Assembly (NCBI GenBank): GCA_035370665.1
Contig: DAOOVZ010000001.1
Coordinates: 1 to 62,589, forward strand
Reading direction: 5' to 3'
DNA from: Candidatus Hydrogenedens sp.
GTDB lineage: Bacteria > Hydrogenedentota > Hydrogenedentia > Hydrogenedentales > Hydrogenedentaceae
DNA length: 62,589 bases
In this document: positions 41,432 to 44,487 of the stretch, piece by piece
Position numbering within the stretch: position 1 is the stretch's first letter
Layout: every line of letters begins with the position of its first letter
The notes under the pieces: model-generated
Databases searched by the model: none
What the model was told of the DNA's origin: nothing
The model's input: only the letters and a program-made list of their open reading frames with translations
Position numbers and translations under genes: made by a program

Positions 41432-42865
41432 ATGGATACAAGATTATCAATATTGCAAACAGTGCTCATGTTATTGTGTGCAACTGCAATTGCTCAAGAA
41501 ACCATAGACCCTGCTCGTTTTGTAGGTGAACGCTGGTTTGGCCTTTATCTGAATAAAGGGAAGGTTGGATTTATGCAACAGGTGCTTACTATTGGTGAAG
41601 ATGGAAAGGTTTATTTTAAAGAAGATGGGACTTTCCGAATGAACATGAGCGGTGTTAAACAAGAGATGACAGTAAACTCTGTGCGGACCTATGCCAAAAC
41701 AGGTGAACTTATCTCAATTGACTATAAATTAACTGATTTGCTTTCGACCACAGAATTTCATGCTCAAGTTGTGGACAATCAGTTGAAATTAGTCAAAATA
41801 ATGGCAGGACAAACCACAGAACGATACTTTCCCGTGCCTCAAGAACAATTAAAAGATGCCTTAAAATTTCAGTTATGGATGCAGAAAAAGCCAAAAATAG
41901 GAGAGGAATTGGTTTCCTTCTTTTTTGAACCTTTATATGAACAAGAACTTACTTGCGTGTCAACCATTGTTGGAACAGAAGAGCGATTATTTAATGGCGT
42001 AGTTACAAAGGTGTATAAAATTCAAACAAATGTTAATATCCTCAATCTGGAGCAGACTTCGTATGTAACAGAAGAAGGATTAGTATTAGAAGATATTTCA
42101 GGTGAAATCTTTACCATGCGATTGGAGCCCAAAGAGGTTGCAAAAGACATCAATTACAGTAATGATGTTCTTGTTTCAAATGCTGCAATTGTAGATAAGC
42201 AGATTGAAAATCCCCGTGAACGAGAGAGCCTAAAATTAATTCTTAATGGACCATTAAATGAAAATCACCTTTTTTGTGATGAACGACAACAAATTGTGCG
42301 TGAAGGAGACCATTTTGTATTTACTGCAAAACGGCTTAAACCCGATGCTATACCTAAACTAAACTTGCCCATTCAAGAGGAAGAAGTGAAACGATGGGCA
42401 CAACCTAGCAATTTTATTCAAAGTGACCACCCTGATATGGTAAAAACAGCAAAGGAGATTATCGCTGATACAACAGATGCCTGGGAAGCAGCTCAAAAAA
42501 TATGTACCTGGGTAAAGGAGAATATGAGGACTTCCTATTCGGCTCAATTAACTAATGCGTTAGATGTCTTGAAACATCGTGAAGGCGATTGCACGGAACA
42601 TAGTTTGTTATTTGTGGGATTAGCACGAGCCATAGGCATTCCTGCACGCGAGGTAGCAGGATTGATTTATGTAGATTCTCCAAAGCCGGGTTTTTATTTT
42701 CATCAGTGGGCAAAGGTATGGATAGGCAAATGGATAGATATGGACCCTACTTTCAATCAGACCTTAGTTGATGTCACGCACATCAAAATTGGTGAAGGTG
42801 ATATTATCGAACAAATCAAATTAATACCACTCGTTGGCAGAATCCGAATATCCGTAATAGAATAA
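41432..42865 (+). CDS. Secreted transglutaminase-like (Cys-His-Asp) protein
   Basis: Signal peptide, then REGDCTEHSLLFVGLARAIGIPAR ... FHQWAKVW ... DMDPT. Confidence 0.85.
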   Translation: MDTRLSILQTVLMLLCATAIAQETIDPARFVGERWFGLYLNKGKVGFMQQVLTIGEDGKVYFKEDGTFRMNMSGVKQEMTVNSVRTYAKTGELISIDYKLTDLLSTTEFHAQVVDNQLKLVKIMAGQTTERYFPVPQEQLKDALKFQLWMQKKPKIGEELVSFFFEPLYEQELTCVSTIVGTEERLFNGVVTKVYKIQTNVNILNLEQTSYVTEEGLVLEDISGEIFTMRLEPKEVAKDINYSNDVLVSNAAIVDKQIENPRERESLKLILNGPLNENHLFCDERQQIVREGDHFVFTAKRLKPDAIPKLNLPIQEEEVKRWAQPSNFIQSDHPDMVKTAKEIIADTTDAWEAAQKICTWVKENMRTSYSAQLTNALDVLKHREGDCTEHSLLFVGLARAIGIPAREVAGLIYVDSPKPGFYFHQWAKVWIGKWIDMDPTFNQTLVDVTHIKIGEGDIIEQIKLIPLVGRIRISVIE

Positions 42866-42870
42866 ACAAA
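42823..42870 (+). repeat. Left copy of a 48-bp direct repeat (it is the real 3' end of the transglutaminase-like gene)
   Basis: aataccactcgttggcagaatccgaatatccgtaatagaataaacaaa encodes ...LIPLVGRIRISVIE then a stop. Confidence 0.85.
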
Positions 42871-44439
42871 GCAGTTATACAGGATTTTTCTAAAGCATTT
42901 TTATTTAATAATTTTCATGCTGTTTATCAGAACAAAAATATAGAAATATATTTTATAAAACATTTTAGATTAATTGCCTTTGTTCGGGATGAGTTGAAGC
43001 AGAAGGAACAACTTAAAAATATGGCATGGATAAGAGGGTTAAATTCTCTTCCAAAGGAACTCCAGAGATGATAAATCAGGCAACACTTTTTGAGTTGGGA
43101 AAAAATGTAACAAAACCCAATAGAAAGCAACAAAATTTACCTTATAAAAGAATCAGAGATGAGTATTGGGATTTTAAAACTACACCTGCCTCAATTGGGA
43201 TTTATGGTATTCACCCATATCCTGCAATGCTCCATTTTTTAGTAGTTCGAGAACTTTTACAAGGTTATTCAAAGGAAGGGGATACAATTTTAGACCCATT
43301 TATGGGTTCTGGCGTCGTTGCAGGTGAATGCCTAATAAATAATAGAAACTTTATAGGTTATGATATAAATCCTCTTGCTGTACTAATTGCAAAAGTTCGA
43401 ACTACACCCATTCCCACACCACAATTGCTCAATTTTCTAAATTTAATTGAGGAAAATTATTATAAAAATCTTCCTGAAGCAGTTGAGTTTCATAATATTC
43501 ACTACTGGTTTGAGGAGGATATTATAAAACAACTTTCCAAATTAAGAAAGTCCATATTTTGTTTAGAAGAAGAAGATACCAGAGATTTTTTTAATGTTGC
43601 TTTTTCTGAGACCGTAAGGAAAGTATCAAAAACAAAATATAATGAGTTCAAACTATTAAGAAGAAAAAGTAATAATGCCAATTCAGATGCAATGAAGGTT
43701 TTTAAAGAAATAAGTCTAAGCAATATAGGGCTACTTACAGAGTTTTATAGAACTTATAAACATAAAAAAATGCAAATTGTTTTGGAAAATAAAAATATTT
43801 TTGAAGCATCAGGTTTAGAAGATAGTTCAATTGACCTTGTGATTACTTCTCCTCCTTATGGAGATTCCAAAACTACCGTTGCGTATGGACAATTTTCTCG
43901 TTTGTCTTTGAGATGGCTTGGACTTGAAGAAAATGTTGATAAAACATCATTAGGTAGTAAACCTAAAGATATTATATTTAATTTACCTTCCAAAGTTCTT
44001 TATGAAGTATTGCATAAAATTGTAGACAAAGATGAAAAACGAGCCAAAGAAGTTTTTTCGTTTTACGATGAGTTATTTAGGGCTATTCAAATAATGACTC
44101 AAAAAGTAAAAAAGAATGGATATGTTTGTTTTGTCGTTGGCAATAGAAGAGTAAAAAGTGAAGAACTTCCAACAGATAAAATTTCTGCTGATTTCTTTGA
44201 AACTCAGGGATTTCAACATATAAAAACTATCGTTAGAGCAATATCAAATAAACGAATGCCTATTGAAAATGCACCTTCAAATATTAAAGGTAAAAAAGAT
44301 TTTACAATGAGATATGAGTATATTGTTATTCTTAAAAAACAAATTTAATGAGGATAAGAATTATTACTAAGTGAGATATATAAAAATCTTTATTTACACT
44401 TAAAAATTAGAGAAAGTGATATTATTAAGCAATTAAACT
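42871..44439 (+). mobile_element. Inserted cassette carrying only an orphan DNA methyltransferase (no recombinase seen)
   Basis: The segment is bracketed by the 48-bp direct repeats. It is AT-rich and holds a single gene. Confidence 0.4.
43026..44348 (+). CDS. Orphan N4/N6 DNA methyltransferase
   Basis: AdoMet motif GDTILDPFMGSGVVAGEC, then the catalytic motif DLVITSPPYGDSKT. There is no adjacent nuclease ORF. Confidence 0.85.
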   Translation: MDKRVKFSSKGTPEMINQATLFELGKNVTKPNRKQQNLPYKRIRDEYWDFKTTPASIGIYGIHPYPAMLHFLVVRELLQGYSKEGDTILDPFMGSGVVAGECLINNRNFIGYDINPLAVLIAKVRTTPIPTPQLLNFLNLIEENYYKNLPEAVEFHNIHYWFEEDIIKQLSKLRKSIFCLEEEDTRDFFNVAFSETVRKVSKTKYNEFKLLRRKSNNANSDAMKVFKEISLSNIGLLTEFYRTYKHKKMQIVLENKNIFEASGLEDSSIDLVITSPPYGDSKTTVAYGQFSRLSLRWLGLEENVDKTSLGSKPKDIIFNLPSKVLYEVLHKIVDKDEKRAKEVFSFYDELFRAIQIMTQKVKKNGYVCFVVGNRRVKSEELPTDKISADFFETQGFQHIKTIVRAISNKRMPIENAPSNIKGKKDFTMRYEYIVILKKQI

Positions 44440-44448
44440 AATATCACT
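44415..44448 (+). other. Perfect 10-bp-stem hairpin at the right cassette boundary
   Basis: agtgatatta (44415-44424), a 14-nt loop, then taatatcact (44439-44448). The right arm overlaps the right direct repeat. Confidence 0.5.
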
Positions 44449-44487
44449 TGTTGGCAGAATCCGAATCCCAGTAATAGAATAAACAAA
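44440..44487 (+). repeat. Right copy of the 48-bp direct repeat (displaced, diverged gene 3' end)
   Basis: aatatcacttgttggcagaatccgaatcccagtaatagaataaacaaa has 5 mismatches to the left copy. It still reads in frame as LISLVGRIRIPVIE then a stop. Confidence 0.85.

Follow-up and report, generated by a model that had tools for sequence, protein, structure and literature searches.

A 62,589-nucleotide stretch of DNA from Candidatus Hydrogenedens sp. (GenBank assembly GCA_035370665.1, contig DAOOVZ010000001.1, positions 1 to 62,589; hereafter the window) carries a DNA methyltransferase gene that lies between two direct repeats at the 3′ end of a transglutaminase-like gene. This methylase is the remnant of a complete type II restriction-modification (R-M) pair, the nuclease of which has been deleted in this lineage. 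As an explanation for the locus we favor, at a probability of about 75%, the insertion of an autonomous R-M unit of about 2.2 kb with duplication of its target, followed by deletion of the nuclease; the right copy of the repeat would be decaying and partly converted, and the payload would be young. The source assembly, here called G000, is a metagenome-assembled genome (MAG) of 359 contigs and 3.17 Mb with a GC content of 36.7% and a completeness of 94.6%.

The lone methylase and its lost nuclease

The methylase gene (43026..44348, forward strand) is intact and encodes 440 amino acids (aa). The product was recognized by Pfam as N6_N4_Mtase (PF01555; 1.6e-22, 81 bits against a cut-off of 26.7) and by PADLOC as MTase_II (2.5e-105), and both motif I (DPFMGSG, near aa 90) and motif IV (SPPY, near aa 277) can be read in the translation. 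SPPY is a motif typical of N4-cytosine methylases. Relative to its orthologue in the closest species, G006, the gene shows a dN/dS of 0.14. The methylase is full length and still under constraint; the lineage-specific amino-acid changes, 5 versus 3, are too few for a relative-rate test of relaxed selection.

The original prediction, made from the sequence of the window alone, had described the insert as a single gene, a methyltransferase with no nuclease partner. The methylase is indeed the only intact gene, but the 3′ stump of a nuclease gene had been overlooked. In G006, the target protein of which is 94% identical to that of the window, a methylase is found at the corresponding site, and a 252-aa open reading frame (ORF) directly upstream of it overlaps the methylase start, so that the two form a complete R-M pair. 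The 252-aa product matches the Pfam family EcoRII-C (PF09019; 2.4e-10, 41.2 bits against a cut-off of 25) and PADLOC REase_II, and among structures in the PDB it matches PspGI (2.7e-9), Ecl18kI (4e-8) and EcoRII. Its IDIVVP...CKRTLRERW block (K-x3-RERW) aligns with PspGI and Ecl18kI. The G006 nuclease is also similar in size to PspGI (272 aa), but its likeness to PspGI, Ecl18kI and EcoRII is remote and covers roughly residues 78-230 only.

In contrast to the systems of these enzymes, the window keeps only a 33-codon stump of the nuclease gene. The stump (LIAFVRDELKQKEQLKNMAWIRGLNSLPKELQR; 42968..43071, forward strand) was located by tblastn with the G006 nuclease and by alignment; the final 33 codons and the stop occupy 42970-43071 and overlap the methylase start. 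It is preceded by the deletion joint (42950..42967, forward strand), an 18-nt filler that stands for about 686 bp of G006 (L015 3193-3878), that is, for the nuclease start codon and about 217 codons. Before the joint, pairwise alignment with G006 identified the left non-coding end of the cassette, formerly the upstream region of the nuclease gene (42871..42949, forward strand). It starts GCAGTTATACAG in both genomes, and a weak promoter-like site is present at 42924-42952. No intact nuclease gene was found in the window and no further nuclease copy in the 94.6%-complete assembly, where the payload is present in single copy. The R-M pair of G006 together with the stump in the window therefore identifies the "orphan" methylase as a decayed R-M system, and a cassette that had been solitary from the beginning is no longer tenable.

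Enzymes of the PspGI, Ecl18kI and EcoRII-C group cleave CCWGG or CCNGG (PMC2577355), and M.PspGI is presumed to modify cytosine at N4 (PMC2532716), with which the SPPY motif of the window methylase agrees. By this family resemblance the R-M unit of the cassette probably recognizes CCWGG or CCNGG, and the methylase of the window presumably goes on methylating its old site of that type. In the genome, CCWGG is depleted, with an observed/expected ratio (O/E) of 0.59, while CCSGG is enriched (1.51).

Cassettes of the same family were found elsewhere. Pairs in which the nuclease gene is followed by an overlapping methylase gene, with 52-71% aa identity, occur in MAGs labelled Clostridia, WOR-3, Calescibacterium and others, and at several further homologous loci the nuclease is lost or the methylase is a pseudogene. 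The spread of the pair over such distant MAGs indicates a laterally mobile unit, and the pair is one that often decays. A 79%-identical methylase in a MAG labelled Nitrospiraceae (L024 4061-7218) has a frameshift, a replaced N-terminus and no nuclease. In a MAG labelled Omnitrophota, about 360 nt of methylase fragments, with the final 39 residues 90% identical, lie directly after a gltD-like oxidoreductase gene (L040 6001-6359); this remnant is another decay stage of the cassette family.

The duplicated gene end and the empty site

The target gene (41432..42865, forward strand) is intact and encodes a transglutaminase-like protein of 477 aa (Pfam Transglut_core, 2.7e-21). The left copy of the repeat (42779..42882, forward strand), delimited by a repeat search, genome-wide BLAST and alignment with relatives, holds the final 29 codons of this gene, the stop and 8 clearly shared nt (TAAACAAA); past these the similarity is weaker and reaches 42882. 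The right copy (44397..44499, forward strand), delimited by the repeat search, BLAST and alignment to the empty site of the congener G009, is non-coding and decaying, and with respect to the downstream DNA it stands in the place of the native gene end. Over their full length of about 104 nt (42779-42882 and 44397-44499) the copies are about 80% identical with one 1-nt indel. The repeat search returned them as two segments with a 1-nt offset, 42814-42882/44431-44499 (69 nt, 83%) and 42779-42819/44397-44437 (41 nt, 76%). When the left copy was compared by BLAST with the whole 3.17-Mb assembly, only two places were found, the second with an E-value of 9.4e-20, and the match is thus not due to chance.

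The 48-mers at 42823-42870 and 44440-44487, by which the repeat was originally noticed, differ at 5 of 48 positions, as had been stated. The accompanying claim that the right copy preserves the reading frame holds in part. The quoted stretch reads ...I(P/S)LVGRIRI(S/P)VIE-stop in both copies, but read from the start of the right copy a TAA follows after 14 codons, and the quoted frame returns only past the 1-nt deletion. This deletion is one of 11 private changes of the right copy, nine of which are located at or before 42832 and most of which are GC-to-AT. The DNA between the copies (1526-1569 bp, about 1.57 kb) is AT-rich as reported, with 29% GC compared to 36.7% in the genome.

The cassette of G006 is flanked by repeats of 86 nt that are identical at 85 of 86 positions (98.8%). 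The left junction, TAAACAAA / GCAG(T)TTATACA..., is the same in G000 and G006, whereas the right junctions differ: in G006 the repeat abuts the methylase stop, while the window has an AT-rich spacer of 48 nt between the methylase stop and the right repeat (44349..44396, forward strand). The payload measures about 1.5 kb in the window and about 2.2 kb in G006 and consists of R/M ORFs only. The absence of an integrase or transposase from the insert, noted originally, was confirmed to the extent that only R/M ORFs were found (transposase families were not searched separately).

Full-length orthologues of the target gene are present in eight of nine congeners (67-94% aa identity), the ninth, G002, giving a weak paralogue-level match only, and the DNA downstream of the gene was compared in these eight. 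G009 (L019/L055) and G003 (L021) have a single copy of the repeat that is directly followed by the DUF1559 gene, the native downstream neighbor, which in the window encodes a DUF1559/prepilin-type N-terminal methylation-motif protein at 44853..45854 (forward strand; Pfam, and synteny in G009 and G003). Both copies of the window align to the single G009 sequence. These empty sites bear out the proposal of an insertion into the transglutaminase-like gene at its 3′ end, with duplication of the gene end. The cassette occupies the site in G000 and G006 and in no other congener. A metagenome scan with the target protein gave two extra loci only, one a G006-like fragment and the other a G009-like empty site.

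In G007 (L016 2832-8900), about 6 kb separate the transglutaminase-like and DUF1559 genes and contain ResB-like, cytochrome-c-assembly, hypothetical and B12-binding radical-SAM genes, and in G001 and G008 the downstream neighbors of the target gene are different again. Within the genus, synteny therefore breaks on the 3′ side of the target gene.

The right copy of the window, being only about 80% identical to the left one, could suggest homologous exchange with a diverged allele, an origin that the original prediction had listed, or a chance insertion between repeats that existed beforehand. However, the copies of G006 are nearly identical, the private changes of the right copy are mostly of the kind that decay predicts, the empty-site relatives have a single copy, and the genome contains no third copy of the repeat. 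An exchange with a diverged allele is thus unsupported, and either origin is very improbable. An assembly artefact, such as a chimeric join or a collapsed repeat, could be suspected in a MAG of 359 contigs, the more so as the short G006-like contigs L054 and L059 break inside the repeat. We find it hardly credible, as the identical methylase protein is encoded in the same setting on nine contigs of other metagenome assemblies, the two of these that were read, L056 (9.3 kb) and L057 (4.0 kb), match the window at 100% identity over their length, both repeats included, and G006, an independent species, has the same architecture.

The hairpin in the right copy

The predicted hairpin at 44415..44448 (forward strand), inside the right copy, was borne out as a perfect 10-bp stem with a DNA folding energy of -8.6 kcal/mol (z = -5.0; none of 200 shuffles was as stable). 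It is lineage-specific. The homologous stretch of the left copy has 8 of the 10 pairs and does not fold (z = +1.1), and neither does that of the right copy of G006 (z = -0.5). Two GC-to-AT transitions completed the stem. The hairpin, being present neither in the left copy nor in the right copy of G006, is not a part of the element, and it is regarded as an accidental by-product of the decay of the right copy. A role as attC, terminator or recombination site was rejected, since the two homologous stretches are unfolded and no T-run follows the stem. The features of an integron gene cassette were likewise not found, the hairpin being confined to the right copy of the window and no integrase being nearby.

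Age of the payload and concerted change of the repeats

Divergence between G000 and G006 was compared across eight syntenic genes. The proportion of synonymous differences (pS) is 0.208 for the methylase and 0.35-0.50 for the seven flanking genes, the methylase value being the lowest of the eight by a wide margin. Because the methylase is more AT-rich, four-fold sites were also stratified by base class and compared with four flanking genes. At W (A or T) sites 15% differ in the methylase and 34% in the flanks (Fisher p = 7e-5), and at S (G or C) sites 20% and 47%, respectively (Fisher p = 0.011). Transfer of the cassette together with its neighbors would have left a tract of low divergence in the flanks, but none was found: pS is 0.37 over the final 77 codons of the target gene, and the downstream spacer is 65-75% identical. 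At synonymous sites the methylase is thus about half as diverged as the flanks, and the cassette is therefore younger than the split of G000 and G006. It follows that in one lineage at least the payload arrived or was replaced after the separation, at the same site, although the repeats look local.

A single insertion before the split followed by vertical descent would attribute the low divergence of the methylase to composition and selection and the concordance of the repeats to gene conversion only. That two sister species, and no other congener, share the site, the left junction and the gene order of the cassette fits such a history, as does the left non-coding stretch of the cassette, which at about 84-86% identity is close to the flanks. 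The third-position GC content (GC3) of the methylase, 0.19 compared to about 0.30 in the flanks, would also lower the attainable divergence somewhat. However, the methylase remains about half as different after stratification by base class, its pS is the lowest of all syntenic genes, and the host intergenic DNA adjoining the cassette is only 65-75% identical. We consider an old insertion with vertical descent rather unlikely.

The repeats have changed in a concerted manner. At six sites, all within 42829-42862, the left and right copies are the same within each genome and differ between the genomes, while the T at 42808 is common to the right copies of G000 and G006 and is not found in the left copies. 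Between G000 and G006, the left copies show differences at 8 of 88 positions, a divergence like that of the host. Since the copies share substitutions specific to their genome, both are local and derive from target duplication and/or gene conversion. The original idea that the incoming element supplied an att-like replacement end is contradicted by these six sites and by the near identity of the two copies in G006. The simplest reading of the pattern is gene conversion in each lineage from the selected left copy to the right copy. Conversion would have been more recent and longer in G006, and older and shorter in the window, on top of a neutral, AT-biased decay of the right copy.

Probable course of the insertion and alternative origins

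The following course of events probably accounts for the locus. A type II unit, consisting of a nuclease gene of the PspGI/Ecl18kI/EcoRII-C family and an overlapping SPPY methylase gene, would have entered the target gene at its extreme 3′ end, with a duplication of about 90-100 bp that covers the final 29 codons, the stop and a few bases beyond. Owing to this duplication, the left junction leaves the gene intact, and the right junction carries a redundant copy of its end. The insert itself would need no integrase. In the lineage of G000, a deletion of about 686 bp removed the nuclease gene except for its final 33 codons. The redundant right copy would have decayed towards AT, creating the hairpin by accident, and would have been partly re-homogenized to the left copy by gene conversion. 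The sequences themselves show the anatomy of the locus, the empty site, the nuclease of the sister species, the deletion, the discordance in age and the concordance of the repeats within each genome; we infer the insertion mechanism, the recognition sequence, the activity of the methylase and the order of events.

Several points weigh against this course. The mechanism of insertion itself cannot be observed from sequence, and an assembly that is 94.6% complete could lack a recombinase acting in trans or a further copy of the nuclease. The depletion of CCWGG is modest and many palindromes are avoided far more strongly, which makes the call of specificity weak. Long direct repeats were found around none of 12 homologous cassettes from other phyla (nor around the decayed L040 remnant), only chance matches of 15-16 nt, so the long duplication is not constant in this R-M family. 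The distant solitary homologue L024 lies about 1 kb downstream of a truncated ORF that resembles a tyrosine recombinase. Finally, the same left junction in two species in combination with a younger payload is awkward for independent insertions that are not site-specific. The identical junction and the young payload call for homology-guided transfer or some targeting. The payload could have reached the same site by repeat-anchored exchange, by re-integration of a released payload-plus-repeat, or by two targeted insertions.

Site-specific integration at an att site, with the recombinase acting in trans or lost, would make the present gene end element-derived and the right copy the displaced original. 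The insert does lie at a gene 3′ end and its direct repeat includes the stop codon, as at att sites in tRNA genes or gene ends; the left junction shared by the two species and the recombinase-like ORF beside L024 would also fit, and site-specific recombination is counted among three classes of repeat-flanked R-M genes by Furuta et al. (PMC2853133). On the other hand, the payload comprises only R and M in G006, and M and the R stump in the window. The insert and the adjacent genes contain no recombinase; the only two PF00589 genes of the assembly, both of about 316 aa, are on other contigs (C39 and C112). With 2.2 kb, the payload leaves no room for a recombinase, which speaks against the recombinase-based element of the original prediction. 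Furthermore, both copies carry bases of the host lineage and neither looks foreign; the difference between the left copies of G000 and G006 matches the synonymous divergence of the host and not that of the payload; the repeat is long (86-104 nt) and has no recognizable core; and the homologous cassettes elsewhere have no related end sequence or repeats. An att-type integration is therefore improbable.

As an extension of insertion with target duplication, homology may allow the cassette to invade the same target anew. The payload would be freed together with one repeat when the two repeats recombine, and in a related genome the freed repeat would guide entry into the intact end of the gene and thereby regenerate the duplication. 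This would explain together the young payload, the identical left junction and the local look of the repeats in each genome; we put it forward tentatively and rate its chances as low. A circular or excised form was not seen: the sole payload-sized contig, L059, runs from the target gene to the right repeat without terminal overlap, and its end is therefore an ordinary assembly break.

Relation to known systems

Insertion of R-M genes with long target duplication was reportedly described by Nobusato et al. in 2000 (Gene). Furuta, Abe and Kobayashi (2010, NAR 38:2428; PMC2853133) report such insertions, including cases with an orphan M, and they mention two repeats of H. influenzae that overlap gene 3′ ends by 15 bp and 2 bp and suggest a role for double-strand breakage in insertion. 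The class is defined there by an insert that carries homologues of R and M, measures less than 20 kb, lacks other mobile-element genes and is flanked by a direct repeat of more than 30 bp that is single at the empty site of relatives, with similarity on both sides, and is not multi-copy. At the present locus, R and M are complete in G006 and reduced to M and a stump in the window, the insert is below 20 kb and free of other mobile-element genes (PF00589 was searched, transposase families not separately), the repeat measures about 104 nt in the window and 86 nt in G006, it is single in G009 and G003 with similarity on both sides, and it occurs at two places in the 3.17-Mb assembly. The locus thus adds a member from an uncultured lineage to the known class of R-M insertions with long target duplication.

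It resembles the cases of Furuta et al. in its R/M-only insert, in the lack of a mobility gene and in a GC content lower than that of the genome. In contrast to them, the comparison is between species of an uncultured genus and not between strains, the duplicated piece spans 29 codons and the nuclease was later deleted in situ. A young payload and concerted repeats are likewise features that we did not find described in the portions of that article used here. Integrase islets at gene 3′ ends and tRNA att sites also have direct repeats by which the target regains its 3′ end; here, however, there is no recombinase gene and no defined core, and both copies carry host-lineage substitutions.

According to Oliveira, Touchon and Rocha (2014; PMC4176335), solitary methylases rarely stem from recent degradation in situ, and 9-13% of pan-genome families hold both states. 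As in other orphan methylases left by degraded R-M systems, an intact and constrained methylase has outlived its nuclease. Compared to that survey, the present locus is uncommon in showing the deletion, the joint and the nuclease stump together. Neighboring species of an uncultured lineage preserve the empty site, the filled site with an intact nuclease and the decayed site where only the methylase is left, and the brief history of a selfish R-M unit can be followed in full at one locus. Insertions with long target duplication were described in cultivated bacteria, most of them naturally competent, and the present case comes from outside that group. With regard to annotation, evidence would be needed before the methylase of the window is taken for a dedicated epigenetic regulator.

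We infer that without its nuclease the unit provides neither defence nor post-segregational killing, so that recombination between the repeats could now eliminate the cassette at no cost. The discordance in age between payload and flanks, together with the concerted repeats, offers a handle on whether such units move between relatives via their own target duplication. Kobayashi's group has proposed a life cycle resembling that of viruses for R-M systems, the "release and re-infection" steps of which are without evidence according to Furuta et al. (PMC2853133). Re-invasion by homology, if true, would be sequence evidence for these steps.

Further observations

The spacer that follows the right copy (44500-44852) has a GC content of 14-20% and is the stretch that diverges fastest from G006 (65-75% identity). 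A perfect TTGACA-17-TATAAT is located in it at 44720-44748, upstream of the DUF1559 gene. A second promoter-like sequence, TTGGCA-18-TAGAAT (10/12), is present in both repeat copies, at 42834-42863 and 44451-44480, and the left one would point into the cassette. It was rejected as a promoter, as the total of the scan was not above that of shuffled sequences and the site is not conserved in G006.

Other stretches resembling N4/N6-methylases were seen in the window at 9478-9660 and 10526-10843 (forward strand) and at 25087-25353 (reverse strand), 31-38% identical to the cassette methylase in its motif-I region, and the assembly holds at least ten other PF01555-like methylase loci. Under a maximal-order Markov model, several palindromes are avoided to an extreme degree in G000, namely GATC (O/E 0.023), CATATG (0.027), ACGT (0.057) and ATCGAT (0.058), followed by GTCGAC (0.065), AGCT (0.10), GTAC (0.13) and GGCC (0.15). 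This avoidance points to a long history of heavy restriction pressure.

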